The notes under the pieces are model-generated. The model was not told the origin of the DNA, did no database searches, and was given only the letters and a program-made list of their open reading frames with translations. 64,000 bases of DNA from IMG/VR virus record IMGVR_UViG_3300028805_000039, positions 63,852 to 127,851 of that record; one strand, 5' to 3'. The stretch comes from a virus (Duplodnaviria; Heunggongvirae; Uroviricota; Caudoviricetes). Of this stretch, positions 29,001 through 63,537 are shown one piece after another. The translations under genes were made by a program, and so were the position numbers. The first letter of the stretch is position 1. Each line of letters begins with the position of its first letter.

Positions 29001-32000
29001 GGCCATAACTCTATTAATTTTAAAGCTTCTTCATTCGTTTTCTCAATAGCTTCTCGCCATTCTTTAGTGCCTTCTGTTAGCTAATCAATACTATTTCTTG
29101 CTTCAGTATAATCTTCAATAGTTGACTTTAACTAATTATATGTTTCAGTAGCTTTTTCAAACTCTTCTTTAGCTTTTTTAGTCGCTTCTACCTATTCGGC
29201 ATAAGCCTATCTTGCTTTATGGGTAGCATCATAAAAACTTTTAATAGCGATAACGACCCCTGCAAGTATTGCAATAACAATTGTTGCTGTAGCTGCAAAG
29301 GTAGCAATCGCTGCTCCAGCTTCACTCAATCCAGCTGTTAAAGCACCAATAGCTGGCACAGCACTATTGATACTAGTACCAGTTTTTATAGCAAATTTTC
29401 CAATACTTTCAAATAATTTTGGTACAGCATTGGCCCCTTTTATCATACGGTCTAAACTAAACATCAAAGTGCCCGATGCCGCCGCCGTAGATAACATTTT
29501 GTCTGACATACTCTTGGAAGTATCATTCCAAGTTTCTTTTAAACCTTTAATAGTATTTATAAACGAAGCTAATGCAGTTAACCCACTAGCAACTGTTGTT
29601 AAGCTTTGCCCAATACTCTATAACTCTCCTTTAACTTGCTATAAATATTCTTTTAAAATAGCCGCAGAAGAAGACATGTTAAAGAAACCTGTTGTGACAT
29701 CTTTACTTGCCCCTTGAACATTATTAAAATGATCCTCTAAAGCTCGCATAGCTCCATCTACATCAGTAGTAAAAGGTTTAATTATGTTTCTTATTGTCTC
29801 TAAACTTGTTTGAATATCAGTATTTAATTCTCCGCTTCTACCTTGTATCTTATTAAAAAAGGCTTCAGCAGCCTAATTGACTTCATCGAATCCTTTACTA
29901 GGATCCTTTATAGCCGCTTCAAATTTAGCTTTAAATTCATCAAAAAGTCTTTGAGTATTTGTTCCATATACCTCTTCAACTGTATGGCCAAACTATTTTG
30001 TAGATTGCTCTATTCCATTTATTATAGCCTCAAATGATGTTAAATTATTTGTATTTTTTGAAAAATCTATTTTGGTAAATGACTACATAGTTGTTTCAAC
30101 TATAGCCAATTCTTTCGCATATTTTTGTAAATTACTTATCTAAGTATCATATTTAGTTTTATCAAATTCGTTTGAAGTATTTTTTAATGCAAGAAAACGA
30201 TCTACTACTTTAGCCGCATTTGCTTCAACTGATTTAAGATTATCTTTTACTCCAGTACAAGCTGTTTGCAAAGTCTAAAAAGCTTTAATGGCTTCACTTG
30301 AGTATCCTTTTCCTTCTAAAAATTTTTCTACTGTCTACTTTCCCGAATGTGCTGCATCTTCAACTGCTTTAATTTCTTGTTTAAGTAATTTAAATCCTTC
30401 TTGAGCTTCTTTAGTGTCAACACTTGTTAATTTTCCTAAAATATCATCAAAACTACTACTACTATCCCAAAACTACTTATCATTAACTTCTACATTATTG
30501 CTATGTCTCTAAGCTGCATTAGATATTCGAGCCTTTTCTATTCCAAATTGTTCTTGTGCTTTCTATAACTCTTTACCAGCTTCAATTGTATTCTATACTA
30601 AAATATTGTGCTATTCTTGTAATAATGTTACTATTTTAGCTTCTTCTGCTGATAACTATTTCTTTTTATTTAATTGCTATTCTAAAATTATATTAGAATA
30701 AGCCGCCTATGACTTATAAGCGGTTCCTGCAACTTGATCTTTTGTATGAGTAGCCCCTGCATACATATTAGCTAATTGATTATTAGCATCCTATTTCATA
30801 GCAATAATTTCTTTTTGAGTATATCCAAAAAAGAATCTAATACGCTATATTAAATTATCAATACTAGAACTTAATTGTGGTCCAAAAATAGTAAGAAAAG
30901 CAGTGCTAACGACAGATAATACACCGGGCAATCCGCCCAATGCTTTAATTAAATTATTAATACCATCAAGATTTTTTTCTATAAAATCATTAACATCAAT
31001 AAAAAAATCATCATTTATTAATGATGAATAAATAGCTTCAGCAGCAGCTTTTACTCTATCTCTTGCTGCTTCCCAGCCTTCAGCATAAATTTCAGCTTGT
31101 TTATTTAAAGTTCCCTCAGAACCTTCAGCAATTTGTATATTATCTTTAAATTTATCAAAATTATCAAAAAGTGCAATTAAATTAGTATATTGACGCACAC
31201 CACCAACAGTGTTTGCGACTGTGATTCGCGAAGTTTCATCTAATGTCTACCATTTCTCTCCAATATCAAATAAAATAGTATCCATTTCTTTTAACTTTCC
31301 ATTAGCATCTAATACGTTAACACCTATTTTAGCTAATGCTTCTGTGTATTTAGTTAATCCTACGCCATCTTCTAATGTTTTACCAAGTTTCAAACTTTGT
31401 AAACGAGCGAAAATAGTCCTTAAACCAGTACCTACAGTATCAGCACTCTAACGAGTCTATGCAACAATAGTTGCTAAAGCAGCAGCGGCATTTTCATAAC
31501 TTAAACCTACTGTACTAGCAACTGATGCAAATTTTTCCATACCAACAGCAATTTCAGCTTGGCTGGAAGCAGTCGCCGCACCTAAAGCAGACATAACATC
31601 AGCATAATATTCAAGTGATTTACTTCCATCATCAAAATTATTCCAGACAGCTGTCATCTAATCAGATACAGTTTCAGCTGTCTATCTAGAAACATTTGCC
31701 AATTTTAAAGTTGCTTCAGTTCTACGTGCTACTTCTTCATCAGTTAAACCCTATTGATAATAAATTAAAGAAGCATTAGTATAATCTAATGTAGTAGAAC
31801 TTAAACTACGCGCTGCTTTATTAGCACGATCAGCAAATAAAGACATTTCTTCGGCTGACTAATTAGTAACAATACGAATATTATTTAAAGATTCATTTAA
31901 ATTCTAAGCATATCCATATGCACTGGAGATCCCACCAACTAATGTGTGGATAACACTTGAAGAAATCTAAAATCGTGCGACATTCTTCAATGTAATCCAC

Positions 32001-32398
32001 ATTTGATTAATCATACTATTACTACGTTCTAAAGAAACATTAGCTGTACTAATAGATTGAGTTAATTGCAAAAATGCCTATTTTCCATTTGCACCTAATT
32101 TAGATAAGGCAGAGCCATAATCCCCCAATGTTTTTCCACTAGTTTTTAATGAATTATTAAATTTTACTAAATCTAATGATCCATCTGTCCGCATAGCATC
32201 CTGTAATTTTACTTTTAATTCAGTGGCTGCTATTTTTGCTTTATTAATTTCAGCACTAATCCCAGAACCACCTAATCCAATAGATGGCTAGTTTAAAGCT
32301 TTATCTAATAAACGATTTAATTCTTGAATAGAATTTTTTGCCTAACTTGTATCAGCAGTAAATCGCATATCAACATTTAAGTGTTTTCCTCCACTCAT
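23096..32398 (-). CDS. Tail tape measure protein, 3100 aa (TAG=Gln)
   Basis: ATG 32398 after GAAAGGAG. N-terminal TP901-type core (LNESLNNIRIVT...AARSLSSTTLDYTNASLIYY), long Ala/Glu/Lys helical body, and C-terminal DTGGYTGSWG..GKIAVLH motif. Eleven track fragments are in frame; TAA at 23096. Confidence 0.9.
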
Positions 32399-32444
32399 TG
32401 GACTAAAACTCCTTTCTCTCTATAACATTATATATAAAAAAGAA

Positions 32445-50880: not shown

Positions 50881-51396
50881 TTAAAAAAATGACAAATTAA
50901 AAAAATAAATTCTTTAATACACTAAATCGTAAAAAAGCCAGTCAAATACTAAATTAACATTATTCTTTAACACATTAAAGTAATAAAAAACCAAGAGAGA
51001 TAATAGTAACAATGTATCATCAAATAATTGCGCAATAGGCGAGATAGATAAAGAAGCTTCACAAAGCAAGGCAGAGACATTCGTCAAGCCTATACGTTAG
51101 CATAACACAACAAGACTATGAATAAACAATAAGACAAAAGAGTAGATAAACAACAAACTAAATACGATAGTAATAGTAATACATTAATTATTATAATAAT
51201 TACAAAAGAAAAACATTGACAAACAGCACCACTTGTGGTATAATAGAAGTGGTGCCTTGCGATAAGGTAAGCGGCGACCTTTGTTAAAAAAATAACAATC
51301 TTTTTTATAAAAAAACTCTTGACATTTGCCCGGGCTTGTGATATTATAATACCAGAAAGAGAGAGATAAATAAATTAAAAGAAAGAGGTAAACAAA

Positions 51397-51624
51397 ATGA
51401 AAGAGATTAAGTACGCAATTCACAATAACAAGAATGAGGTTGTTGATTGGGCTAACACCGAAGCAGAAGCAGAAGCACTTGTCAAGAAAGCCGCTAAAAG
51501 AGGCTGGAAACGCACCATTCACAAAATCGAATGGACGATCAATGAAAACCCTGAAATCTGGGAACTCGAAGGTGGCAAGGAAGATCCCACCAAGGTGGAA
51601 TGGGGCAATAATGAAGAGTGGTAA
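51397..51624 (+). CDS. Early hypothetical protein, 75 aa
   Basis: Own promoter, GAGG RBS, TAA stop. Confidence 0.75.
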   Translation: MKEIKYAIHNNKNEVVDWANTEAEAEALVKKAAKRGWKRTIHKIEWTINENPEIWELEGGKEDPTKVEWGNNEEW

Positions 51625-51690
51625 AAACCACTCTTCTTTTTTTATAAAAAAACTCTTGACAGATTGGCACATCCATGTTATAATACAATC

Positions 51691-51738
51691 ACAGGTTGAG
51701 GGAAACCACACGCGGGTAGTCGAGGGGAGAGACTAACT
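51691..51738 (+). ncRNA. 48-nt structured repeat element, copy 1 (putative small RNA/leader)
   Basis: Starts about 7 nt after TATAAT; GGTT-GAGGGA-AACC, AC-ACGCGG-GT, AGTC-GAGGGGAGA-GACT; no ORF. Confidence 0.65.
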
Positions 51739-51846
51739 AAATAGTAACAAAAGAAAAACAAAAAGTTTCTAAAAATAGTTGTTGACAAATAACATCCTTT
51801 GTGCTATACTATAATCACAAAGGGAAGAGAAAAGGAGATAACAAAG

Positions 51847-52155
51847 ATGATTAACATTAGAACTATCAACAAACTCACTGAGAATGATGGACTTACTCTT
51901 AAAAATGGTAAGCTTATCACTTACAAAAGCGGTTGGCAGGTTGCCACCGAGGGCGTAGAGTGCCACACCGCACGGGAAGCCATTAACGCGGTTAAGGCTT
52001 ACGGCGGTAACTGTGGGGTGTGGTTCGCTGGTGGTATCTACTACATCGACAAAAGCCACAGAGTCAATACCAAGCGCGAGGCGCTTGAAATTGGCAAAGC
52101 TCATAATCAAATCTCTGTTCTGGGCTGGCGTAAAATGGTTTTAGCGTACTGCTAA
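51847..52155 (+). CDS. Early hypothetical protein, 102 aa
   Basis: ATG 51847 after AAGGAG (the track start at 51799 lies inside the promoter). Confidence 0.75.
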   Translation: MINIRTINKLTENDGLTLKNGKLITYKSGWQVATEGVECHTAREAINAVKAYGGNCGVWFAGGIYYIDKSHRVNTKREALEIGKAHNQISVLGWRKMVLAYC

Positions 52156-52218
52156 AACCATTTTATTTTTTATAAAAAAATACTTGACAAGTCAATCTAT
52201 CTATGCTATAATACAATC

Positions 52219-52266
52219 ACAGGTTGAGGGAAACCGCACTCGGGCAGGAGAGGGGAAGGACTGACT
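52219..52266 (+). ncRNA. 48-nt structured repeat element, copy 2
   Basis: Own promoter; GGTT-GAGGGA-AACC, GC-ACTCGG-GC. Confidence 0.65.
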
Positions 52267-52380
52267 TAAAAGTAACAAAAGAATGACAAAAAATTTTTCT
52301 ATTTTTTTTGAAAAAATGCTTGACAAATCGCCCGGGCTTTGCTATAATACAATCAGAAAGAACAAGGGAGGACAAAAAAA

Positions 52381-52782
52381 ATGACTTACTACTTCGACAT
52401 GGATGGCGTTCTGGCTGACTTCCACTCTACTTACACTGAGCGCGCACAGGCTTTGAGCCGCGACTATCTTGCCAATCTCGCCCCGTTCGTTGAGAATGTC
52501 AAGACTGTCCGGAACCTCATTGCTCACGGTGAAAAGGTTTACATTCTCACCAAGGCCGCTAACGATGATGCCAAGGCTGGCAAAATTGACTGGCTGGCAA
52601 AGTACATCCCGGAAATTACGGCAGAACAGTTTATTTGCATCGTAGGCTCTGGTCGCAAGGTTGATTACATTCGTGAAGCTGGCATTCTTGTGGATGATGA
52701 TATTAAGAACATTCGGCAGTGGGTCAAAGGTGGCTTTGAGGGCTATCTGGTAGAGACTAAAGGTGCCACGGTTATTCTCTAA
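52381..52782 (+). CDS. HAD-superfamily 5'(3')-deoxyribonucleotidase-like phosphatase, copy A, 133 aa
   Basis: Motif I YYFDMDGVLADF, motif II ILTK, C-terminal LVDD. Confidence 0.8.
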   Translation: MTYYFDMDGVLADFHSTYTERAQALSRDYLANLAPFVENVKTVRNLIAHGEKVYILTKAANDDAKAGKIDWLAKYIPEITAEQFICIVGSGRKVDYIREAGILVDDDIKNIRQWVKGGFEGYLVETKGATVIL

Positions 52783-52977
52783 CCGTGGCGCTTTCTATTT
52801 TGCCCGGGCAAAATCGCCAGCTCCGAAAGGCCCCGGACTTCACCACGCTAAAGTGGTGAAGTAAAAAACGCGAATGATTGTTAAACAAATAACAATAAAA
52901 AATGTCCCGAAACTACTTGACAATAGGCACAATGTGTGGTAGAATACAGTCACCAAGAGGAAAAGAGGTAGACAGCA

Positions 52978-53382
52978 ATGACAATTAGATTCGCAACGAC
53001 TGCTGATGCTATCCGCATTATTAGGGCTATACAGAATAAACGCATGGACTACAATACGCCGCAAGATGTGCGGGAAGATGTGAACGCGGGGCGGCTGATT
53101 GTAGCAGAGGAAAACGGCAAGCTTTTAGGGTCTGTAGCTGTCGTGTATAAAGTCCATCGTGGTTATTATGCTATCATGAGAATGTGCGTGTATTCAAAAA
53201 CCAGCAAGGGCAAAGGGGTAGCAAGTGCGTTAATTGACTACGTGTTAGCTCTTGGCCTTGGCACTTATGGTGCAACGCCTTGGAATGACAATCCGGCCAT
53301 GATTCACATTTTTGTTAAAAGAGGTTTTGAGTACCAATACACATTCAAAAATAAATACGATTTTTATAAAAAAGGGGCTTGA
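52978..53382 (+). CDS. GNAT-family acetyltransferase, 134 aa
   Basis: TIRFAT..D start, acetyl-CoA motif A (VYSKTSKGKGVASALI), N..MIHIFVKRGF. Confidence 0.8.
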   Translation: MTIRFATTADAIRIIRAIQNKRMDYNTPQDVREDVNAGRLIVAEENGKLLGSVAVVYKVHRGYYAIMRMCVYSKTSKGKGVASALIDYVLALGLGTYGATPWNDNPAMIHIFVKRGFEYQYTFKNKYDFYKKGA

Positions 53383-53436
53383 CAAGTTCAAGCCCTTATG
53401 TTATAATACAATCACAAAAGAAAAGGAGATAAAAAA

Positions 53437-53607
53437 ATGTTTAATGTTTACTACATCCGCAATGGGTATGAACTCAACGCTAAATTTGAAAAAAGAGGAA
53501 GTGCTCTTTTATTTGCTCATAATTTTGTATCTATGTTAGGCGGAGATTATGCCGCTGTTACTGATACAGAAACAAATAAAACTATACAAGTTTATAGCAG
53601 ATACTAA
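53437..53607 (+). CDS. Early small protein, 56 aa
   Basis: Promoter plus AAGGAG; MFNVYYIRNG...QVYSRY-TAA, followed by the hairpin AAAAAGGCTGATTCAGCCTTTTTT. Confidence 0.7.
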   Translation: MFNVYYIRNGYELNAKFEKRGSALLFAHNFVSMLGGDYAAVTDTETNKTIQVYSRY

Positions 53608-53694
53608 AAAAGGCTGATTCAGCCTTTTTTATTTACATTAAAAAAAATGAAAAAAGTGCTTGACAAATCGCCCGGGCAATGTTATAATACAATC

Positions 53695-53742
53695 ACAGGC
53701 TGAGGGAAGCCCCACGCGGGGAGACGAGGGGAGAGACTGACT
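53695..53742 (+). ncRNA. 48-nt structured repeat element, copy 3
   Basis: GGCT-GAGGGA-AGCC and CC-ACGCGG-GG carry compensatory changes relative to copy 1. Confidence 0.65.
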
Positions 53743-53876
53743 TAAAAGTAACAAATTGATGACAAAAAAATTTTTAAAAAAAATGAAAAAAGTGCTTGAC
53801 AATTTGCCCGGGCTGTGCTATACTATAATCAGAAAGAGGGAAGGAAAACCCAAATAAACCGGAAAGGAAGAAAAAG

Positions 53877-53984
53877 ATGGAATTTTACAGTATGGAACAG
53901 TTCGAGATTCTGGGCGACCTGATGGAAGACTATCAGGAGTGGCTGGACTTTGAAGAGGACATGAAAACTAATCCTTGGGGCTGA
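53877..53984 (+). CDS. Acidic micropeptide, 35 aa
   Basis: Promoter plus GAAAGGA; MEFYSMEQFEILGDLMEDYQEWLDFEEDMKTNPWG. Confidence 0.6.
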   Translation: MEFYSMEQFEILGDLMEDYQEWLDFEEDMKTNPWG

Positions 53985-54075
53985 AAAAAGCCCCAAGGAA
54001 ATTAAAAAAAGTACTTGACAAGTAAGACAAAGTATGTTATAATACAACCAGAAAGAAAGAAAAGGAGATAAAAAA

Positions 54076-54246
54076 ATGTACATCGTAACTGCTTACAAGA
54101 TTTGGGAAGAGTTTGAAGACTACAACAAAGCCGAACTGTACTTCGCCGCTTTGAAACATGGTGGGTACAAGTATGTGGAACTGAAAAAGAAAACCACGAC
54201 CGACAAATACGAATACTTTGAAAGTATCAAAATCTTTGTAAAATAA
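54076..54246 (+). CDS. Early small protein, 56 aa
   Basis: Promoter plus AAGGAG; MYIVTAYKIWEEF...KIFVK-TAA. Confidence 0.7.
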   Translation: MYIVTAYKIWEEFEDYNKAELYFAALKHGGYKYVELKKKTTTDKYEYFESIKIFVK

Positions 54247-54321
54247 TTAAAAAAGGGGCTTGACAAATCAAGCCCCTATGTGATATAATAAAGGCACAAA
54301 AGAAAAAAGGAGATTAAAAAA

Positions 54322-54471
54322 ATGACTATTCGTGAATTTTATAATTGGGCTGTCGCTAATGATGTTGAGGATTTTTGGTTTGGTGAAATGTTCCCCAATG
54401 GGATTGAAGTCTTTGAAATTGAAGATTTCACAATCAATACTGATAATAATTTTGTTTCTATCAACAATTAA
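54322..54471 (+). CDS. Acidic small protein, 49 aa
   Basis: Promoter plus AAGGAG; MTIREFYNWAVANDVEDFWF... Confidence 0.7.
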   Translation: MTIREFYNWAVANDVEDFWFGEMFPNGIEVFEIEDFTINTDNNFVSINN

Positions 54472-54553
54472 AAAAATAATTAAAAAAGGGGCTTGACAAG
54501 ACAAGCCCCTTGTGTTATAATGTAATCACAAAAGAGAAAAGGAGATAAAAAAA

Positions 54554-54709
54554 ATGAAAATGATTCAGAACATCGAATGCGGTAACATCTTCCCCTATAC
54601 CCTTGAGGGATTGATCGAAATGAGAGAAGAAGCCCGTGAACTTTACGATATTGAAGATCCCACTAATGCGGTGAGCATTTCCGAATACTATCAAATTATC
54701 ACGCTGTAA
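54554..54709 (+). CDS. Acidic small protein, 51 aa
   Basis: Promoter plus AAGGAG; MKMIQNIECG...YYQIITL-TAA. Confidence 0.7.
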   Translation: MKMIQNIECGNIFPYTLEGLIEMREEARELYDIEDPTNAVSISEYYQIITL

Positions 54710-54773
54710 AAAGCGTGATTTTTTTTTTGAAAAAGTGCTTGACAAATCGCCCGGGCAATGCTATAATACAATC

Positions 54774-54821
54774 ACAGGTTGAAGGAAACCGCACCGGGGC
54801 AGAGGAGGGGAGAGACTGACT
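54774..54821 (+). ncRNA. 48-nt structured repeat element, copy 4
   Basis: GGTT-GAAGGA-AACC, GC-ACCGGG-GC; promoter has GCCCGGGC in its spacer. Confidence 0.65.
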
Positions 54822-54945
54822 TAATAGTTACAAAAGAAAAACAAAAAATTTCTAAAAAAAACTCTTGACATTTGCCCGGTCTTGTGATATTATAATACCA
54901 GAAAGAGGGAAGGAAAACCCAATAAACCAGAAGGGAAAAGAAAAG

Positions 54946-55377
54946 ATGAAAGAACTATACAGAGTGGAGCACATGACCAGAAGTGACTATGATGAATACA
55001 TGTGCGGGGGCTATAACTATAGGGTGCAGAAAATAAATGTGCTCGCGGAAAACCTGCAGGACGCCGCCCAAATCGTTAAAGAAATGTTCCCGTCTCATGT
55101 AATTAATGATGGTTATGTCAAAACTGTCGCTGAACTTGAGGCAGAACAAGCGGCAAAGGAAGCAGAATGGGAAGCCGAAAAAAGGAAAAAAGCAGAGCAG
55201 AAAGCCAAAAAAGAAGCTTTTGAAAAAGCCCATCCTGAGATTGTGGCAGAGCGCAAAAGAAAAGCAAAAATTACCAGAGCAAAAACAACAATTAAAGGAC
55301 TTGAAAAGCAGATTGCAGAAGCTGAAAAGAATCTTGCATACTGGAAAGCAAAACTTGAAGAACTTGAAAAGGGCTGA
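54946..55377 (+). CDS. Early protein with C-terminal Glu/Lys/Ala coiled coil, 143 aa
   Basis: ATG 54946 after AAGGGA; TGA at 55377. Confidence 0.75.
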   Translation: MKELYRVEHMTRSDYDEYMCGGYNYRVQKINVLAENLQDAAQIVKEMFPSHVINDGYVKTVAELEAEQAAKEAEWEAEKRKKAEQKAKKEAFEKAHPEIVAERKRKAKITRAKTTIKGLEKQIAEAEKNLAYWKAKLEELEKG

Positions 55378-55443
55378 AAAAAGCCCTTTTCTTTTTTTAG
55401 AAAAGTGCTTGACAAATCCCCCAACCTATGATACAATACAATC

Positions 55444-55491
55444 ACAGGCGGAGGGACGCCCCACGCGGGGAGCCGAGGGGGAAGACTGACT
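55444..55491 (+). ncRNA. 48-nt structured repeat element, copy 5
   Basis: GGCG-GAGGGA-CGCC (two pairs changed) and CC-ACGCGG-GG. Confidence 0.65.
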
Positions 55492-55597
55492 TTAGGTTAC
55501 AAAATGGTAACAAAAAATTTCTAAAAAAAGTAGTTGACAAATGCCCGGGCTTGTGATATTATAATACCAGAAAAAGAAAAGAAAGGAAGTAAATACA

Positions 55598-55771
55598 ATG
55601 TATAGAATCAAAATCGAAAGCGAACATGCCCCCAATACTTACAAATGGTATAATAACCCTCAGCAAGCGCATCTTGTAGCCTATACCATTATTAAGAATA
55701 AGGACGCAAATATTGTAACAGTGGAAAACCTTAAAGAAAAAAAGATTGAAAAAATTTATAAAAGGGCTTGA
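55598..55771 (+). CDS. Early small protein, 57 aa
   Basis: Promoter plus AAAGGA; the TGA stop lies inside the next -35 box. Confidence 0.65.
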   Translation: MYRIKIESEHAPNTYKWYNNPQQAHLVAYTIIKNKDANIVTVENLKEKKIEKIYKRA

Positions 55772-55830
55772 CAAATAGCCCGGCCTATGGTATAATAAAG
55801 GCACAAAGAAAGAAAAGGAGATAAAAGAAA

Positions 55831-55989
55831 ATGAACGTTAACGAAATCAAAGAAAGAATTGAAAAACTTGAACGCTGGTGCTGGTTTGAGCAGATGGCAG
55901 ATTTTATGAACTGGACAGCCTACAACAAAGCACAGGCTGAAATCAAAGAGTTGAAAAAAAAGTTAGCAGAAATTGAAAAAGGGGCTTGA
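55831..55989 (+). CDS. Early small coiled-coil protein, 52 aa
   Basis: Promoter plus AAGGAG; ends KGA-TGA inside the next -35 box. Confidence 0.7.
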   Translation: MNVNEIKERIEKLERWCWFEQMADFMNWTAYNKAQAEIKELKKKLAEIEKGA

Positions 55990-56048
55990 CAAAACAAGCC
56001 CCAGATGGTATAATAAATACAGAAAGAAAGAAAAGGAGAATTAAAAAA

Positions 56049-56333
56049 ATGAGTTATTTTATGGGAAATGGTCGTGCCGATACTTGCCGCCACAACGATG
56101 AAGTTTATAAAGGCAAGGCGGTTGAGATGATGATTGATGTGCTGGAAACCCGCGACGGCTTTGAGCTTCGCAAGGCAAGCGACAGCACTGGAGCGGCGGC
56201 AAAGTTCCGCATCTTTTGGGACGGTGAGTGCATCAGCACCGTCTATAATGAAAAGGAAGCACGGGCACTGTTTAACGACTTCGCCCCAGCGCCCCAGCGG
56301 AAGGCGGGACGCCCTAAGAAGAATGCGGCATAA
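56049..56333 (+). CDS. Early protein, 94 aa, with C-terminal AT-hook-like RKAGRPKK
   Basis: ATG 56049 after AAGGAG. Confidence 0.75.
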   Translation: MSYFMGNGRADTCRHNDEVYKGKAVEMMIDVLETRDGFELRKASDSTGAAAKFRIFWDGECISTVYNEKEARALFNDFAPAPQRKAGRPKKNAA

Positions 56334-56440
56334 AAAGCCGCTTCTTCATCGCCCGGGCAAAGATTACAAAAGAAAAACATTGACAAATAGCCAAAAGCAT
56401 GTTATAATGTAATCACAAAAGAGAAAAGGAGATAAAGAAA

Positions 56441-56617
56441 ATGACTTACGAAGAAATGTACGACTTGCTGGCCAATACCCTTGGGATCGATGAGAATGCC
56501 CTTGATTTGGCTTTTGCTGTTGGTGGATGCAATGAAGAAACTGCTGAAAGAATTTTATTCTATTACACTGGCTGGCATTCCTTTGAGGGCTGGTTGGGTG
56601 AGCAGGAAGAGGGCTGA
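56441..56617 (+). CDS. Acidic small protein, 58 aa
   Basis: Promoter plus AAGGAG; MTYEEMYDLLANTLG...GWLGEQEEG-TGA. Confidence 0.7.
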   Translation: MTYEEMYDLLANTLGIDENALDLAFAVGGCNEETAERILFYYTGWHSFEGWLGEQEEG

Positions 56618-56721
56618 AAAAGCCCTCTTTTGCCCGGGCGGAAAAGTTACAAAAAAAAGTCATTGACAAACCAAAAGATGTATGGTATTATAATACCAGA
56701 AAGAGAAAAGGAGATAAAAAA

Positions 56722-56895
56722 ATGAAAGTCAAAGATTTAATGAACATTCTCAGCAAGTATGACATGGACGACGATGTAAGGGTTATTAGTTATGATGATA
56801 ACGCAATAATTCAAATTGGTAATTACAGACCCTCTGCTGGCCCCTATGGTGACAAGTATCCTTTCTTTATTCCGTATGGTGAAATTACTACTTGA
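56722..56895 (+). CDS. Early small protein, 57 aa
   Basis: Promoter plus AAGGAG; MKVKDLMNILSKYDMDDDV... Confidence 0.7.
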   Translation: MKVKDLMNILSKYDMDDDVRVISYDDNAIIQIGNYRPSAGPYGDKYPFFIPYGEITT

Positions 56896-56974
56896 AAAAA
56901 ATAAAAAAGGGGCTTGACAAAACAAGCCCCGCATGATATAATACAATCACAAAGAAAGAAAAGGAGAAATAAAA

Positions 56975-57100
56975 ATGATTACTTGCGCTGAATGTCTGTG
57001 CCATAATGAGTGCCCGCTGTATCGTGGTGAAGATACCGACCCCTGTTGGTATGAAAAAATCAGAAAAGAAAAGGAGAACAAAGAAAATGAAAAAGTTTGA
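56975..57100 (+). CDS. Cys-rich micropeptide, 41 aa
   Basis: Promoter plus AAGGAG; MITCAECLCHNECPLYRGEDTDPCWY... Confidence 0.6.
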   Translation: MITCAECLCHNECPLYRGEDTDPCWYEKIRKEKENKENEKV

Positions 57101-57224
57101 AGCTAAGATTACCCGCGACAATGCCGAAATCAAGTGCATTGTGGAAGCTATTGACAAAGACCACGCCGCCCGCCGCTTCTTTGAGATTCTGGGAGAGCAC
57201 GGCCTGAAAATCAAGGAACTGTAA
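57087..57224 (+). CDS. Early small protein, 45 aa
   Basis: AAGGAG RBS inside the previous ORF; TAA stop. Confidence 0.65.
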   Translation: MKKFEAKITRDNAEIKCIVEAIDKDHAARRFFEILGEHGLKIKEL

Positions 57225-57352
57225 AAAGTTCCTTGACTTTTGCCCGGGCGATTTACCTCAAAAATTTTAAGTAAAAAAATTAAAAAAGAGGCTTGACAAA
57301 TGCCCGGGCTTATGTTATTATAATACCAGAAAGAACAAAGGAGATAAAAAAA

Positions 57353-57562
57353 ATGAACATGAATGAGAAAATCAAAGAACTGGAAGCCAAAGGGTACAAC
57401 AAGCATGACACCTATGAAGTGGATGAAGCCGCGAATGGTGGATGGGTTATTACAGTTTATACCAGTCTGTGGGGTTTTGAAGAGTATTTGTATGATACAG
57501 ACGGAAATCCCATTGAAGCAACAGAAATCAATCTGTATGGCAAGCCCCAAAAAATTTATTAA
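57353..57562 (+). CDS. Early small acidic protein, 69 aa
   Basis: Promoter with GCCCGGGC plus AAGGAG. Confidence 0.7.
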   Translation: MNMNEKIKELEAKGYNKHDTYEVDEAANGGWVITVYTSLWGFEEYLYDTDGNPIEATEINLYGKPQKIY

Positions 57563-57633
57563 ATTGGGGCTTGACAAATAAAACAAAGCATGTTATAATA
57601 AATACAGAAAGAAAGAAAAGGAGAAATAAAAAA

Positions 57634-57852
57634 ATGAAAGCAATTATGGTTGATAACAAGATTCTGTCTCTGGAAAATGTAAAAGAAGTTGAATTCTATG
57701 AGGGCGGGACAGGAGCACAGCGAAATCCCTTTTATTATGGGGTAGCAATTGATTATATGAATGGAGAGCATTCTTCGTCTGGCTCTACAAACAATAAAGA
57801 AAAAGCCAAAGAATGGTTTAATAAAATCTTTGAAATTATTACCGCTGAATAA
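57634..57852 (+). CDS. Early small protein, 72 aa
   Basis: Promoter plus AAGGAG. Confidence 0.7.
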   Translation: MKAIMVDNKILSLENVKEVEFYEGGTGAQRNPFYYGVAIDYMNGEHSSSGSTNNKEKAKEWFNKIFEIITAE

Positions 57853-57949
57853 GCGGTAATTTTTTACTGCCGAAAATACTTCAAAAATTTTAAGTAAAAA
57901 CCGCAAAAAACCTATTGACAAATCGCCCGGGCAATGCTATACTATAATC

Positions 57950-57997
57950 ACAGGTTGAGGGAAACCGCACTCGGGCAGAAGAGGGGAAAGACTGACT
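57950..57997 (+). ncRNA. 48-nt structured repeat element, copy 6
   Basis: GGTT-GAGGGA-AACC, GC-ACTCGG-GC; promoter has GCCCGGGC. Confidence 0.65.
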
Positions 57998-58114
57998 TTA
58001 AGTTACAAAATAGTAACAATAATTTTTTTAGAAAAAATAAAAAAAAGGCTTGACAAGCCCGGGCATGTATGCTATAATGTAATCACAAAGAGGGAAGGAA
58101 AAGGAGATAAAAAA

Positions 58115-58336
58115 ATGGAAAAGAAATTTATTTATGATGTAGCAGGCAACCTTTATGAAGATACCGAAGCCTTTGGCAAGGCTTGGAAGGCCGCAAAGGA
58201 AAAGGCCACAACTCTCCACTGTGCGATTTATCGCACTGTCTGCAAGGGAGAGACAGAACGCCGGGAGGTGTTCTTCAAGGGCAGGTGCTTCAACAATGTA
58301 AAATACGCCACTTCTGACAACGTGATGATTTTCTAA
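58115..58336 (+). CDS. Early small protein, 73 aa
   Basis: Promoter with GCCCGGGC plus AAGGAG. Confidence 0.7.
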   Translation: MEKKFIYDVAGNLYEDTEAFGKAWKAAKEKATTLHCAIYRTVCKGETERREVFFKGRCFNNVKYATSDNVMIF

Positions 58337-58436
58337 GGGATTAAAAAAATCCCTTAGAAAATTAAAAAAAATGCTTGACATGTAAAACAAAGTATGCTAT
58401 AATACAGACAGAAAGAAAGAAAAGGAGAATAAAACA

Positions 58437-58760
58437 ATGAAAGTTAAAATGAATCAGCTAACCTATCACGCAAAAGAAGAAAGACGCGATAGACGCGAAA
58501 TCGTCAAACAAGTTGGAATTGGTAAACCAATAGCACAGGTTAAAAAATTCAATGACAATGGTAGAGAAAAAATTGAAATGCTCACAGATACAGGGCTGGT
58601 TATTATAATGGGTGATGATAATAAAATCATAACTCTTTACCTTGCGAGTACCGCAAAAGCGGCAGCCATTTATAAATCAGCACACGGCGCAAATGCAAAA
58701 ATGCCTGCACAAATCTTTGAACAAATCAAAATAAATCGTATCATGTTCCCCGCTGATTAA
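58437..58760 (+). CDS. Early hypothetical protein, 107 aa
   Basis: Promoter plus AAGGAG; followed by the hairpin CCCCGCTGATTAAAGCGGGG. Confidence 0.75.
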   Translation: MKVKMNQLTYHAKEERRDRREIVKQVGIGKPIAQVKKFNDNGREKIEMLTDTGLVIIMGDDNKIITLYLASTAKAAAIYKSAHGANAKMPAQIFEQIKINRIMFPAD

Positions 58761-58834
58761 AGCGGGGACTTGATTTTTATAAAAAAAAATGATATAATAA
58801 ATTATAAAATAAAATAAAGGAGGCCGAAAAAGTT

Positions 58835-58951
58835 ATGGACTTAATGCTTGCCCGGGCACTTTTAGCAATCGCAAAGTATTGCGCTTCTTGTGATGATTGT
58901 GATAAATGTGCTTTACATGAATTCTGCGGGAAAATACCATTAGAGTGGTAA
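58835..58951 (+). CDS. Cys-rich micropeptide, 38 aa
   Basis: AAGGAGG RBS; MDLMLARALLAIAKYCASCDDCDKCALHEFCGKIPLEW. Confidence 0.6.
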   Translation: MDLMLARALLAIAKYCASCDDCDKCALHEFCGKIPLEW

Positions 58952-59145
58952 TTAACGCGGCGACCGCACCCAATCGGGGCGGTTCGAACTTTCGCACGGT
59001 AAAGCGTTGAAGAATTTTTCGGCCATTAAGTCGGGCAAAACTTTTAATGTTTTTTGCCCGAAACCTATTGACAAATAAATACTCTTGTGTTATACTATAA
59101 TTGTTCCAAGAGAGAACAACAAAAACAAAAAAGGAGAATACAACA

Positions 59146-59328
59146 ATGTATAATGTGCGGTTTACTGACACCATCCATGGTGAGATGGAAGAGAACTTTG
59201 ATAGCTATGATGCGGCTATGGAGTATTGGAATAGCTATGCTGATACCGAGTCTTGTGTGGCTGGTGTCATGATGGATTTGGATAATTGCGAAATTATCTG
59301 GAATTTTGACGACAGGGAGGCAGAATAA
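59146..59328 (+). CDS. Highly acidic small protein, 60 aa
   Basis: Promoter plus AAGGAG. Confidence 0.7.
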   Translation: MYNVRFTDTIHGEMEENFDSYDAAMEYWNSYADTESCVAGVMMDLDNCEIIWNFDDREAE

Positions 59329-59589
59329 ATGAAAAAGATTCTTGCTTTTGTCCTTGTTTTTGTTCTTATCCTATCGTTGGGCATAAGCGCTTATGCTTAT
59401 AATAAATCTATCTTTGATTTGAAATACCATTTCAATTATGCTTATGTAGATTTGTTAAATGGTACGACAGTTGAGGGTAAAGTCCAGAGTTGGAAAGACT
59501 GGGAAGATTCAGACATGTTGCAAGTCACTTTTGAGGATGGAGCTACTTATTATTCCCATTCTTCTAACATTATGCTTGTTTCAAAATAA
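59329..59589 (+). CDS. Exported protein with N-terminal signal peptide, 86 aa
   Basis: MKKILAFVLVFVLILSLGISAYA; GGAGG RBS; abuts the previous stop. Confidence 0.75.
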   Translation: MKKILAFVLVFVLILSLGISAYAYNKSIFDLKYHFNYAYVDLLNGTTVEGKVQSWKDWEDSDMLQVTFEDGATYYSHSSNIMLVSK

Positions 59590-59662
59590 TAATAAAAAAG
59601 GGCTTGACAAACAAGCCCTTTTGTGCTATTATAATACCAGAAAAGGAAAGGGAAATAAAAAA

Positions 59663-59842
59663 ATGACTACTTACAGAGAACGCCTGCTTGACCGCATGAT
59701 TGCCCTTTATGGGCTTGAAAATCCAATTGTTATCGAGTTTGCCAATATGTGCGAAAAATATGGGGATAATTCTTGGAATGATGATTTTCTGCGGCTCTTG
59801 GTAGAAGCCCATGAAGCAGACCCAGTTTTTAAGGAAGATTAA
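59663..59842 (+). CDS. Early small protein, 59 aa
   Basis: Promoter plus AAGGGA. Confidence 0.7.
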   Translation: MTTYRERLLDRMIALYGLENPIVIEFANMCEKYGDNSWNDDFLRLLVEAHEADPVFKED

Positions 59843-59948
59843 AAATCTTCCTTAATCGCCCGGGCAGAAAAGTGACAAAAGAAAGACATTGACAAACTAT
59901 AAATAATGTGTTATAATAAAGGCACAAAAAGAAAAGGAGAATAAAACA

Positions 59949-60386
59949 ATGAATAAAGTTTTCAACAAAATAAAGACATGGGCTGAACCTGTGAGCGATT
60001 GGTGGTTTTTTAATTGGGAAGCTGTTGTAGTTATAATTTTTATAGCGGCTGTGCTTATTGGGCTTGTGGTACTCGCTTTATGGGCTTCTGGTGCTTTTTA
60101 TGATGAAGTCGAAAATTATGACTTCACAGCGCAGGTGTATGATAAAGACCACTATACCACTCAATCAGTAAGTTATATTACTTCTGGTAAAACTCGCATT
60201 CCTGTATACCATACTCATCATCACTACAAAGTAATGTGGGAAGATGGTGGAGAACGTGGTACATTTGAAATTGGTGAAGACCATTATGATTTAATTAAAA
60301 TCGGGGACTTTATCAATGTTCATTGCTCTGTGAGGGCAGACAAGCAGGGTGAACTTCATTATTATTATAGTTTCAAGGGATATTAA
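59949..60386 (+). CDS. Membrane-anchored protein, 145 aa
   Basis: One hydrophobic helix (AVVVIIFIAAVLIGLVVLALWA) followed by a beta-rich soluble domain. Confidence 0.75.
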   Translation: MNKVFNKIKTWAEPVSDWWFFNWEAVVVIIFIAAVLIGLVVLALWASGAFYDEVENYDFTAQVYDKDHYTTQSVSYITSGKTRIPVYHTHHHYKVMWEDGGERGTFEIGEDHYDLIKIGDFINVHCSVRADKQGELHYYYSFKGY

Positions 60387-60477
60387 AATCCCTTGAAATT
60401 TTTTTCAAAAAGTGCTTGACAAGTCCAAAAGAGTATGTTATAATGAAGGCACAAAGAAAGAAAAGGAGAATAAAAAA

Positions 60478-60939
60478 ATGAATAACGAAGTAATTAAGGC
60501 AATGAATAAACAGCCCCGTAAAAAAAGCAATTTTCAAAAGTGGTGGGAACAAAACGATTATAAAGTTTGGCGTGTCGTGCTGTTCCCCATTTGGATTTAT
60601 GTGTGGAGCAGAGAAAAAATTAAAACTTATCTTAATTCCCGTACAGTATGGAATGAAAACAGAGCGAATGAAATACTTAGTTATTACATTCCCCGCTGTG
60701 CTCGTTGGAATAATGAAAATAAAACCTTTTATTATTTTAATAATGGGTATGGATGGGAAATGGGCTTTGCTAAAAAGTATTTGAAAATTAAAGACCGTAG
60801 ATTTTGGAATCTTTATGCGTGTTGGCGTATTCGTGATTATCTTATCAAAAATTTTGAACTGGAAGGGTTCACCAAAGAAATTGGTAACTGCTACGATGGC
60901 TGGACTGAAATCACTTTCAGAATGAAAACAGAGGATTAA
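60478..60939 (+). CDS. Trp/Tyr-rich early hypothetical protein, 153 aa
   Basis: ATG 60478 after AAGGAG. Confidence 0.75.
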   Translation: MNNEVIKAMNKQPRKKSNFQKWWEQNDYKVWRVVLFPIWIYVWSREKIKTYLNSRTVWNENRANEILSYYIPRCARWNNENKTFYYFNNGYGWEMGFAKKYLKIKDRRFWNLYACWRIRDYLIKNFELEGFTKEIGNCYDGWTEITFRMKTED

Positions 60940-61003
60940 AAAATCCTCTGTTTTTTTCAAAAAAGGGCTTGACAAATCGCCCGGGCTATGTTATATTATA
61001 GTC

Positions 61004-61051
61004 ACAGGCGGAGGGACGCCACACTCGGGTAGTAGAGGGGGAGGCTTTTTT
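61004..61051 (+). ncRNA. 48-nt structured repeat element, copy 7 (3' end diverged into a T-run)
   Basis: GGCG-GAGGGA-CGCC and AC-ACTCGG-GT, then AGTAGAGGGGGAGGCTTTTTTT. Confidence 0.6.
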
Positions 61052-61184
61052 TATTTGGAGAATGTGGGGGAGGTTGCCCGGGCGGCGGCAAAAGAAAAAC
61101 AAAAAATTACAAAAAAAGACATTGACAAATAACCAGAAGTATGCTATTATAATACCAGAAAGAGAGATAAAGGAGGACAAAAAA

Positions 61185-61373
61185 ATGTATTTCGTTCTTG
61201 ATATTGTCAGTAATAAAACGGTCGCAATGACCGCTTTTAGAGACGCGGCGGAAATTATCGCCGCAAACTTCCCCGCAAAGTGCGTAGTTCGCTACGCCGC
61301 TGAAATAGTTAGCGGGTATTCTAAAGACAGCCTGTTCTTTGAGAATGAGCAGGAAATGAAAAAAGGGGCTTGA
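61185..61373 (+). CDS. Early small protein, 62 aa
   Basis: AAGGAGG RBS; ends KKGA-TGA inside the next -35 box. Confidence 0.7.
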   Translation: MYFVLDIVSNKTVAMTAFRDAAEIIAANFPAKCVVRYAAEIVSGYSKDSLFFENEQEMKKGA

Positions 61374-61428
61374 CAAAATAGCCCCTTTATGATACAATAC
61401 CAATAGAAACAGAAAAGGAGAAATACAA

Positions 61429-61548
61429 ATGATGTATGACATTTATCCCTGCGATCTTGACCCATTCGGGGAGTGCCCGAAGCATTGTCAGGATTGCGCC
61501 CATTGCGTGGGCTGGTTCATGGATGAACCAGAGGACGAAGAAAATTAA
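61429..61548 (+). CDS. Cys-rich acidic micropeptide, 39 aa
   Basis: Promoter plus AAGGAG; MMYDIYPCDLDPFGECPKHCQDCAHCVGWFMDEPEDEEN. Confidence 0.6.
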   Translation: MMYDIYPCDLDPFGECPKHCQDCAHCVGWFMDEPEDEEN

Positions 61549-61688
61549 AAAAGGGGCTTGACAAATACAACCCCCTGTGCTATAATAAAGACACAATAAA
61601 GGAGATGAAAACAATGAAAGCACGACCGCCGCCCGCAAGGGCATGTGATTGGATTACTAATAATTAGATAGTAATGTATAGGAGAATA

Positions 61689-61826
61689 AACTAATGAATA
61701 GAATTAGAGATGAGACGAAAACCTTTTAAGGTTTTCTAATAGATAGTATAGAATAGAAAGATAATAGAAAATGAGGAAAAACTAATGAATAGAATTAGAG
61801 ATGAGACTAAAACCTTTTAAGGTTTT
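61689..61826. repeat. Two 47-bp direct repeats (period 91 bp), each ending in an 8-bp inverted repeat
   Basis: AACTAATGAATAGAATTAGAGATGAGACNAAAACCTTTTAAGGTTTT at 61689 and 61780. Confidence 0.8.
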
Positions 61827-62005
61827 TGATGAATAGAATAGAATGATAGTAATAAAATAGAATAGAAGTAAGTGCCAAGGGGCGGCTCGGTTGGAGGATG
61901 GAAGTAGCCGAAAAAATTTTTCAAAAAATTTTGAAAAACCCCTTGACAAATGCCCGGGCATTTGTTATAATACAATCACAAAGAGAAAACAAGGAGAAAA
62001 AGAAA

Positions 62006-62119
62006 ATGATGACTAACGATTATTGGGAAGCTCACGAAGCCGAATGGCTTGCCGCTCAGGAGTGCATGGAGTGGCTCCTGTTTGAGGCCGACATGGCCAC
62101 TGACCCCTACCGGGATTAA
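62006..62119 (+). CDS. Acidic micropeptide, 37 aa
   Basis: AAGGAG RBS; MMTNDYWEAHEAEWLAAQECMEWLLFEADMATDPYRD. Confidence 0.6.
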   Translation: MMTNDYWEAHEAEWLAAQECMEWLLFEADMATDPYRD

Positions 62120-62198
62120 AACCCGGTAGGGAGAAAATACTTGACAAGTCCAAAAGTGTATGATATAATTAAGGCACAAAAACAAAGGAGATAAAAAA

Positions 62199-62516
62199 AT
62201 GAGAACTTGTAAAAACTGCGGTTGTTATCTTCCAGATAATTGGACTACTTGCCCCGCATGTTTTATGGATGAAAAGCAAGTTGAACATAAAACAGAAAAA
62301 CAGATTGATTCACACAAAGAGTCTTTTCTTAATAACATTTGCCGCGTTGATACATTCCATAAAAACAATACTAAAACATCAAATGTTTTTGCCTCTTATG
62401 AATACGCTATTAGATTTGCTCATTATATAGCTTGCGAATCTGACATAGCAATGGTTATTGTAACTGACATTCCCAGTGGGAAAATAATTGAAAAACTTTC
62501 TCGTAAAGGGTATTGA
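62199..62516 (+). CDS. Protein with N-terminal Zn ribbon, 105 aa
   Basis: CKNC-N9-CPAC; the TGA stop lies inside the next -35 box. Confidence 0.75.
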   Translation: MRTCKNCGCYLPDNWTTCPACFMDEKQVEHKTEKQIDSHKESFLNNICRVDTFHKNNTKTSNVFASYEYAIRFAHYIACESDIAMVIVTDIPSGKIIEKLSRKGY

Positions 62517-62572
62517 CAAATCCAAAAGCGTATGGTATAATTAAGGCACAAAAGGAAAAGGAGATAAGAAAA

Positions 62573-62713
62573 ATGTACGAATACGAAATTCGCTATCTGG
62601 CAACTGGTGAGACTGATTTTCTGTATGGATATTCTCGTCAGGACTTGGCAAGACGCTATCCCGAAATCCCAACCGATACTTATGTTATCATCTGCCGCGA
62701 GTACATCGACTGA
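62573..62713 (+). CDS. Early small protein, 46 aa
   Basis: Promoter plus AAGGAG. Confidence 0.7.
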   Translation: MYEYEIRYLATGETDFLYGYSRQDLARRYPEIPTDTYVIICREYID

Positions 62714-63035
62714 TGGCTCGCGGTTTTCTATTCATTTTTTTAGAATGGTTATGCATTGTATAAGCATACATTATAAATGAATTTTATACGGGCTATTTTC
62801 GGCGCGCCGCTCCTGGCCGACGCGGCGCGTTTTTCGCTGTAATAATTCTGCCACAATTTTGTCATCAATTTGTAACACATTCGCACAAACAGGCAAAGTC
62901 CCGAAATGAATAATTATACAATGAATAATGAATAAAAATTCAAAAAATTTTTTTGAAAAAATTAAAAAAAAGTGTTGACAAACGCCCGGGCATCTGCTAT
63001 AATCATAGACAGAAAGGGACAAGGAGGATAAAAAA

Positions 63036-63443
63036 ATGACTAACTACTACTTCGACATGGACGGCGTTCTGGCTGACTTCCACGGTGCTTATACTGATAG
63101 GGCACAGGCTTTTCAGTATGATTTTATTGCTAACCTTGCCCCATTTACCGCAAATGTTGAACTTGCAAAGTCCCTCATAGCACAGGGCAATCGGGTTTAT
63201 ATCTCCACCATTGCCGCAAGTGAAGAAGCAAAGCAGGCGAAAATTGATTGGCTTGCTAAGTATCTTCCGGAAATCCCCAGCTATCGTATCATTATCATTG
63301 TTGGGCATGGTAACAAGGCCGAACACATGAGAACAAAGACCGGAATCCTCATTGACGACAAGCGCGCCAACTGCCGCCAATGGGAAAAGGCCGGACAGCG
63401 TGCGGTGTGGCTGGAAATCAAGGGGGGAGCAATCTCCCTTTGA
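63036..63443 (+). CDS. HAD-superfamily 5'(3')-deoxyribonucleotidase-like phosphatase, copy B, 135 aa
   Basis: YYFDMDGVLADFH, ISTI and LIDD motifs; paralogue of 52381-52782. Confidence 0.8.
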   Translation: MTNYYFDMDGVLADFHGAYTDRAQAFQYDFIANLAPFTANVELAKSLIAQGNRVYISTIAASEEAKQAKIDWLAKYLPEIPSYRIIIIVGHGNKAEHMRTKTGILIDDKRANCRQWEKAGQRAVWLEIKGGAISL

Positions 63444-63537
63444 TTCTAAAAAAAATTGTTTTGTAACTATTTTGTAGTTGATTTTGCCCGGGCTATTTGT
63501 TATAATTAAGCCAGAAAGAAACAAGGAGGACAAAAAA

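Follow-up and report, generated by a model that had tools for sequence, protein, structure and literature searches.

The put RNA of phage HK022 is about 70 nt long, folds into two long stem-loops arranged in a V shape, with a triplex in stem I, and binds the zinc-binding domain of the RNA polymerase β′ subunit and suppresses terminators; putL begins at +3 of the PL transcript and requires no phage protein (PMC9378689). Here we analyse a stretch of 64,000 nt (hereafter, the window) from a phage genome in which seven copies of a short element, predicted to form a structured RNA, stand at the presumed 5′ ends of early transcripts. The window corresponds to bases 63,852–127,851 of the 239,565-bp IMG/VR record IMGVR_UViG_3300028805_000039, rated complete by CheckV; the sample originated from sheep gut/rumen, and relatives of the phage come from sheep, goat and cattle samples.

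Further points of comparison are provided by the lambda boxB hairpin, in which a 5-bp stem carries a GNRA-like pentaloop read by the phage N protein, by type III antitoxin RNAs (ToxI), which are tandem repeats placed directly upstream of an endoribonuclease toxin gene, and by RNA anti-CRISPRs, solitary repeat units nearly identical to the host CRISPR repeat. CsrA ligands obtained by SELEX present GGA in a 6-nt loop on a 4-bp stem; CsrA bound to two sites near the 5′ end protects the flhDC mRNA, and the CsrB/RsmZ sponges carry many (4–22) GGA hairpins per RNA, while the review consulted describes no CsrA-titrating small RNA for the FliW-regulated CsrA of Bacillus subtilis (PMC7652899). Polypurine, Shine-Dalgarno-like stabilisers are found at 5′ ends in Bacillus and in the early RNA of phage SP82 (PMC7509114). 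The element described here falls outside put, nut, ToxI, the CsrB/RsmZ sponges and every Rfam family. The comparative data point to a new structured RNA family, without an Rfam match, that falls within the known kinds of phage 5′ RNA elements, and the element may act like put or, alternatively, like 5′ modules of the flhDC or STAB-SD type. Its interest lies in its being small, well defined and abundant in large rumen phages that are uncultivated and decode TAG as an amino acid, and in one possible reading of it as a miniature put-like RNA.

The seven copies and their conserved fold

A sequence-only reading of the window had reported seven dispersed 48-nt copies, alignable without indels and each located just past a promoter, and this description held up. 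A degenerate 37-nt pattern recovered the seven copies at the same coordinates (Table 1), with 0 mismatches and all on the plus strand, compared with 0 matches in 100 shuffles, and the gap-free 48-nt alignment was reproduced; no further copies were found in the 239,565-bp genome by the pattern or by a covariance model, even at E ≤ 10. Position 1 of each copy is the seventh base past the −10 hexamer, that is, the predicted transcription start (+1). The first three bases (ACA) are also found at ordinary gene promoters of the early region, and the element proper therefore starts at G4; the conserved core comprises 37–41 nt. The copies are spaced 528–3054 nt apart, each with its own promoter of the TTGACA-17-TATAAT type, and the small genes downstream of them vary; element and promoter together form part of a repeat of ~150 bp (family D5). 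As proposed earlier, the element contains no open reading frame (ORF): none is conserved, the variable positions show no 3-base period, and the TTG at positions 6–8 is missing from the class with a GGCG/CGCC stem. A coding reading, in which TAG, CAG or GAG at positions 27–29 would be codons of a phage reading TAG as Gln, was also considered and ruled out: position 27 co-varies with position 18, and there is neither periodicity nor a conserved start.

Searches with the covariance model and an nhmmer profile identified ~190 instances in phage contigs from sheep and cattle gut, ~100 of them unique over 48 nt. Covariation across these instances is strong, which bears out the earlier proposal of a functional, strand-specific RNA family and argues that the RNA fold is under selection. 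Among 130 unique sequences, the four pairs with the highest mutual information are all Watson-Crick: 18:27 (G-C 58, C-G 44, A-T 24, four exceptions), 22:31 (T-A 63, C-G 50, G-C 16, one exception), 6:15 (C-G 69, T-A 61) and 7:14 (T-A 88, G-C 42). In an alignment of 56 sequences selected for diversity, 99.1% of the paired cells are complementary, against 78% with shuffled partners and 41–61% with partners slid by 1–3 columns, and the observed covariation score was reached by 0 of 500 shuffles. The covariation is not an artefact of sequence collection, because the varying positions were free (N) in the search pattern, whereas the apparent invariance of the fixed positions is partly such an artefact. 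If the three co-varying modules are kept fully paired, 27 combinations are possible; 14 of these are observed, and the pairs have therefore been re-assorted many times. The same can be followed on a finer scale in one relative (L009), whose syntenic copies differ at 0–4 of 48 positions while the flanks are 86–91% identical: four of its eight differences compensate one another in pairs (G22:C31 to T:A; G18:C27 to A:T), a C19-to-U change keeps a wobble with G26, and three fall at unconstrained positions. More generally, the mismatches tolerated at 18:27 and 19:26 are mostly G-U wobbles in the transcribed sense strand.

The helices only partly coincide with those of the sequence-only reading. Its first stem, P1, in which GGTT/AACC, GGCT/AGCC and GGCG/CGCC replace one another with pairing retained, corresponds to positions 4–7 paired with 14–17 around a G-A-R-G-G-A loop, and its P2, with A-U, G-C or C-G as the outer pair, is confirmed by covariation as 18–19/26–27. 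Absent from the earlier layout is a helix 21–22/31–32, which crosses 18–19/26–27; because the co-varying pair 22:31 thus crosses P2, the core is predicted to be an H-type mini-pseudoknot of 2+2 pairs. The earlier P3 (28–29 with 43–44) did not survive: the positions supposed to pair with A28 and G29, which are themselves constant, change uncompensated, ~15–28% of unique sequences break the helix with no repair, and a third have G:G at 27:45. A closing helix 15–17/40–42 was likewise discarded for want of covariation. Of the loops, said to be nearly invariant, the GAGGGG tract is indeed conserved and ARGGA is kept, but a P3 that would make the tract a loop lacks support, and the P1 loop of copy 4 reads GAAGGA. 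In divergent members P1 is replaced by ACAAC/GTTGT, GCTG/CAGC or GGG(A)C/GCCC, which brings the total to at least six stems, and the loop may be AGGGA, AAGGA, GAAGGA or GGAGGA, with [AG]GGA kept throughout; in class B (AGAGAGAGGGAGAAACC) the helix is lost and GAGGGA persists in a single-stranded purine run. With the nearly invariant GAGGGG(R)A located 3′ of the pseudoknot, the loop motif GAGGGA appears again 24 nt further on, and every instance has a further GGA past P1, most often at 36–38, ~25 nt from the GGA at 11–13.

The single-sequence folding energies are no better than those of shuffled sequences (z near 0 for six of the seven copies; z = −2.1 for copy 7), and the fold therefore probably needs a partner for stability. 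The structural case is accordingly one of covariation and not of thermodynamic stability. A G-quadruplex was considered as well and is weakened by relatives in which G24G25 is AA (L106) or GA (L057) with all four co-varying pairs kept.

Distribution and genomic context of the family

Consistent with the earlier impression that the element belongs to no known family, Rfam 15 yielded no match in the window at gathering thresholds, and a permissive E-value mode gave nothing meaningful at the copies, the sole overlap being Clostridiales-2 across copy 5 (17.5 bits against a cut-off of 58.6 bits, E = 1.4). No likeness to a riboswitch or ribozyme was found among the Rfam models, and no earlier description of the motif in the literature searched. 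In IMG/VR the element occurs in three related contigs, and one scan of a metagenome collection recovered 111 contigs; pattern matches in two GC-rich IMG/VR contigs (L010 and L012) are attributable to chance. A blastn search of GenBank phages (INPHARED) returned no element-bearing relative. A scan of 185,579 species-representative genomes of GTDB gave 8 matches, of which the six reported by cmsearch score 11–19 bits, compared with 60–78 bits for true copies, and are scattered over phyla, as expected for chance matches. In the collections searched, the element is therefore found only in phage-like contigs, and the GTDB scan revealed no host RNA that it might mimic. Four cattle gut runs contain assembled contigs of related phages; two of these runs carry a metatranscriptomic label, though their material is probably DNA, and assembled contigs cannot reveal the starts, ends or strand of transcripts.

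The position of the element with respect to promoters is strikingly uniform. Considering the 175 instances situated away from contig ends, 173 are associated with a consensus promoter, and 167 of these 173 start at the canonical distance of 7 nt past the −10 box; the 5′-end position of the element is thus obligatory. A second promoter follows in 152 of the 175 (87%), with its −35 box at a median of 101 nt from position 1. In the window, copies 1–6 are each followed by a second strong promoter, as had been noted, at a −35-to-−35 distance of 125–136 nt. The sequence-only reading had seen no obvious terminator before the second promoter, and across the family there is indeed no conserved terminator or hairpin there: among 137 unique second-promoter instances, the spacer contains a hairpin in 51 and a run of T5 or more in 51. 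Part of the spacer, TTACAAAAGAAA..., also occurs upstream of element-free promoters and looks like promoter-upstream DNA. Copy 7, which as stated earlier ends in a T-run, continues into GGCTTTTTTT; this type accounts for 14 of the 175 instances and is kept in 14 relatives. The purine motif returns past the T-run of copy 7 (window 61041–61100; GGGGGAGGTTGCCCGGGCGGC), and this second purine block is conserved in all relatives of the T-run type.

All seven copies in the window are preceded by a terminator. In the same contigs, a canonical terminator lies directly before 69% of element promoters and before 18% of other strong promoters, and element promoters therefore tend to head transcription units. 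What these units contain differs: in relatives, the element heads hairpin arrays, spacers with a second promoter, or stand-alone RNAs facing convergent genes, the last being short predicted RNAs that adjoin a convergent gene's terminator (L011, L018, L035 and L106). The arrays (L045, L061, L063, L071 and L122) are composed of tandem small hairpins, AGTTAGAG-nnn-CTCTAACT, with a period of ~20 nt; these GTTA...TAAC hairpins number from 2 to 10 or more, with ten or more in L045, where the element lies at 1086 and the array ~300 nt downstream. In the window, the leaders of the second promoters past copies 3 and 4 open with a GGA-loop hairpin, GAGGG-AAGGAAAA-CCC (53838–53860 and 54907–54929), so that GAGGGAA is found at 5′ ends outside the element too.

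On a larger scale, the copies belong to a promoter-dense, one-directional early region of ~40 kb with ~100 promoters and many terminators. From ~51,000 onwards, the plus strand carries an array of tiny standard-code ORFs, nearly each served by an individual, TG-extended promoter close to perfect TTGACA-17-TATAAT and by an AAAGGAG ribosome-binding site (RBS), a style suggestive of a low-GC Gram-positive host. The seven element copies take up the first 10 kb of this region, and since each has a consensus promoter, bulk early transcription of the element, as the sequence-only reading supposed, is plausible.

Table 1 Element copies in the window and the promoters and terminators around them
Feature	Position in window	Strand	Remarks
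Element copy 1	51691..51738	+	P1 GGTT/AACC; 18:27 A-T; 22:31 G-C; 71.6 bits
Element copy 2	52219..52266	+	P1 GGTT/AACC; 18:27 G-C; 22:31 T-A; 77.9 bits
Element copy 3	53695..53742	+	P1 GGCT/AGCC; 18:27 C-G; 22:31 G-C; 75.7 bits
Element copy 4	54774..54821	+	Loop GAAGGA; 18:27 G-C; 22:31 C-G; 72.7 bits
Element copy 5	55444..55491	+	P1 GGCG/CGCC; 18:27 C-G; 22:31 G-C; 73.1 bits
Element copy 6	57950..57997	+	P1 GGTT/AACC; 18:27 G-C; 22:31 T-A; 77.9 bits
Element copy 7	61004..61051	+	T-run type: core 1-41, then CTTTTTTT; 70.4 bits
Promoter of copy 1	51656..51684	+	12/12 consensus
Promoter of copy 2	52184..52212	+	12/12 consensus
Promoter of copy 3	53660..53688	+	12/12 consensus
Promoter of copy 4	54739..54767	+	12/12 consensus
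Promoter of copy 5	55409..55437	+	11/12 consensus
Promoter of copy 6	57915..57943	+	11/12 consensus
Promoter of copy 7	60969..60997	+	11/12 consensus
Second promoter past copy 1	51782..51810	+	Followed by RBS and ORF
Second promoter past copy 2	52320..52348	+	
Second promoter past copy 3	53796..53824	+	
Second promoter past copy 4	54865..54893	+	
Second promoter past copy 5	55534..55562	+	
Second promoter past copy 6	58050..58078	+	
Next promoter past copy 7	61122..61150	+	
Intrinsic terminator just 5′ of copy-1 promoter	51613..51636	+	
Terminator 5′ of copy-2 promoter	52130..52166	+	
Terminator 5′ of copy-3 promoter	53605..53631	+	
Terminator 5′ of copy-4 promoter	54698..54719	+	
Terminator 5′ of copy-5 promoter	55366..55391	+	
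Terminator 5′ of copy-6 promoter	57838..57860	+	
Hairpin and T-run 5′ of copy-7 promoter	60930..60957	+	Direct sequence reading

Possible roles of the element

We tentatively favour a role of the element as a 5′-terminal platform that captures a factor reading GGA or Shine-Dalgarno-like motifs. The element would form the 5′-terminal domain of abundant early phage transcripts, starting at the predicted +1, in which a short hairpin would display the (G)ARGGA loop, followed by the mini-pseudoknot and then by single-stranded GAGGGG(R)A, so that the spatial arrangement of the two GGA/Shine-Dalgarno-like motifs would be fixed by the fold. This extreme 5′ end would be bound by a bivalent host factor, for which a CsrA dimer and the 30S subunit with its anti-Shine-Dalgarno tail are the candidates, and the bound transcript would be shielded from decay initiated there; the bulk RNA produced from seven consensus promoters may also titrate the bound factor. 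We infer the transcription of the element, its binding partner and its effect from the sequence. Of the three mechanisms put forward by the sequence-only reading, namely antitermination, a protein sponge and a mimic neutralising a defence system, it is the second, recast as a CsrA/Shine-Dalgarno-like platform, that appears to fit best.

Apart from the pseudoknot, the most clearly selected feature is the display of [AG]GGA on a hairpin of 4-bp stem and 6-nt loop, with a second motif ~25 nt away. In this the element resembles CsrA/RsmA-binding RNAs such as the CsrB/RsmZ sponges and the flhDC and B. subtilis hag leaders: GGA sits in a loop of 6 nt closed by a stem of ≤4 bp, a second GGA purine site lies at about that distance, and the location close to the 5′ end recalls flhDC. 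A separation of ~25 nt fits within the reach of one CsrA dimer. The purine tract (run 28–41) pairs with a generic 16S rRNA 3′ tail at −12 to −17 kcal/mol, compared with −9.7 kcal/mol for an RBS of the phage itself. A second parallel is offered by the STAB-SD and polypurine stabilisers of SP82 early RNA and of the cry3A and aprE leaders (PMC7509114, PMC3997798), which share with the element a Shine-Dalgarno-like tract lacking a start codon near the 5′ end, a small hairpin 3 nt from that end and a host-type early promoter, in a phage whose early genes are many and small.

A number of observations weigh against such a platform. CsrA (PF02599) is not encoded in the phage genome, and the presence of CsrA or of RNase J/Y in the host is presumptive. 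Within the purine tract, it is pairing with 22, rather than Shine-Dalgarno complementarity, that fixes position 31, the conservation of G36 and G37 exceeds what pairing with the anti-Shine-Dalgarno would account for, and the stem-closed 6-nt loop is poorly placed for pairing with 16S rRNA. P1 is weak (−4 to −7 kcal/mol) and the element as a whole folds like its shuffles, so that a simple protective hairpin fails to explain the conservation. Known CsrA sites and 5′ stabilisers lack the mini-pseudoknot and the invariant CAC, GGG and AG: in the former, no invariant pseudoknot separates the sites and GGA occupies loop positions 3–5, rather than 4–6 as in the element, whereas the latter are simple sequences or plain hairpins and not a conserved pseudoknotted fold with a partly paired tract. 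Unlike the CsrB/RsmZ sponges, the element comprises one hairpin and one linear site, with multiplicity provided by seven separate promoters. Furthermore, many element units have little or nothing downstream to stabilise, and the second promoter found in 87% of cases is left unexplained by a stabiliser role.

Somewhat more doubtful is a put-like mechanism, in which the nascent fold would bind the polymerase that made it and confer resistance to terminators, and possibly to Rho, in the early gene array. Like put, the element belongs to phage early RNA just past a host-type promoter, starting at +1/+4, much as the structure of putL sets in at +3 of the PL transcript (PMC9378689), and in both a small hairpin comes first and tertiary contacts follow, with no phage protein obviously required. 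A compact core with many invariant bases is what one would expect of a specific macromolecular contact; the seven copies occupy the start of a one-directional, terminator-rich region, their promoters head units directly after canonical terminators, and no conserved terminator intervenes between the element and the downstream genes. However, the element is half the size of put and of a different architecture, with a 4-bp hairpin and a 2+2-bp pseudoknot in 37–48 nt instead of two long stem-loops and a triplex in ~70 nt; put is found in a lambdoid phage of E. coli at two sites per genome rather than seven, and there is no sequence likeness between the two. No −10-like pause element is present in the early transcribed region, and in several relatives the unit meets a convergent gene head-on or is roughly the whole RNA, so that read-through would be pointless or harmful; nor does a put-like role account for the second promoter. 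The full version of this idea, in which a self-sufficient pseudoknotted RNA of ~40 nt at +1 would render the RNA polymerase of a Gram-positive host terminator-resistant at seven sites of a 40-kb region, we consider improbable; if true, it would represent a second, unrelated and much smaller solution to the task of HK022 put. Antitermination of the lambda nut type offers a looser parallel, a small purine-loop hairpin in the nascent early RNA of a terminator-rich region, to which relatives of the element add further hairpins, but lambda has two sites rather than seven, and in the element the purine loop measures 6 nt and its stem 4 bp. The element showed no boxA consensus, no N-like protein came up, although no search was made for one, and the phage encodes no NusG/LoaP-like protein.

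To a trans-acting decoy or ligand-binding RNA we assign about the same low likelihood as to polymerase modification in general. Its partner would be a defence or RNA-processing protein, or a small molecule held in a pseudoknot pocket, and the purine motifs would not signify binding of CsrA or the ribosome. The stand-alone units of the four relatives named above and the T-run type, where the element is roughly the whole transcript, speak for this possibility, as do the number of copies with which the early region opens, each behind a consensus promoter, and a 2+2-bp pseudoknot that probably needs a ligand or protein for stability; in the T-run type, a GCC/GGC pairing that rivals P1 could, as a weak hint, be an expression platform. 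Conversely, no defence-related partner could be identified, there is no resemblance to the riboswitch or ribozyme models of Rfam, the GTDB scan offered no bacterial counterpart to mimic, and in 87% of cases no intrinsic terminator delimits a small RNA. ToxI-like organisation is not apparent either, given that the element copies are dispersed, with promoters of their own and differing small downstream genes. A purely DNA-level element, be it an operator in the initially transcribed region or a promoter cassette spread by recombination without RNA function, is very improbable: although the element lies in a ~150-bp repeat that includes the promoter, a protein-binding DNA palindrome cannot explain compensated pairs in two crossing sets or a P1 with at least six stems, the tolerated exceptions at 18:27 and 19:26 are mostly sense-strand G-U, and syntenic copies diverge less within the element than in its flanks. 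Roles beyond those considered here take up the remainder of the probability.

Whether the partner is CsrA, the ribosome, RNA polymerase or a defence protein, its identity would reveal how these phages handle their first transcripts. With ~40 nt, a promoter-defined end, a testable pseudoknot and two clear motifs, the element is an easy target for biochemistry, and potentially a compact 5′ module for Gram-positive RNA engineering.

Other features of the phage genome

The remainder of the window differs in coding style from the early region. On the minus strand of positions 1–50,000 there are very long ORFs that are open only if TAG is read as a sense codon, among them, in the structural/late gene region, ORFs of 3110 amino acids (23096–32428; 84 in-frame TAGs) and 2709 amino acids (14219–22348; 75 in-frame TAGs).

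Within the early region, the palindrome GCCCGGGC is present in 51 copies per genome, against 0.09 expected, all of them in the early region (genome 110–160 kb) and mostly in −35/−10 spacers or just past gene ends. Twenty sites fall in the window at 51328–63486, and the palindrome looks like an operator for a regulator of early promoters. At six places (window 53375, 54256, 54489, 55982, 56910 and 59600) a GC-rich hairpin, GGGGCTTGACAAAACAAGCCCC, includes the −35 box TTGACA, which means that the hairpin ending one gene overlaps the promoter that follows; read from the minus strand, this hairpin is terminator-like. Many other promoter-driven units without RBS or ORF extend from genome position C1:128921, ~1 kb past the end of the window, to ~150 kb. 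In the early regions of these phages, non-coding RNA units appear to be as plentiful as genes. One such non-coding unit starts with TGTCAGGAGGGGTTGAGAGAATCCCCCACCC, which resembles the P1 loop and CAC segment of the element and is left unscored by the covariance model.

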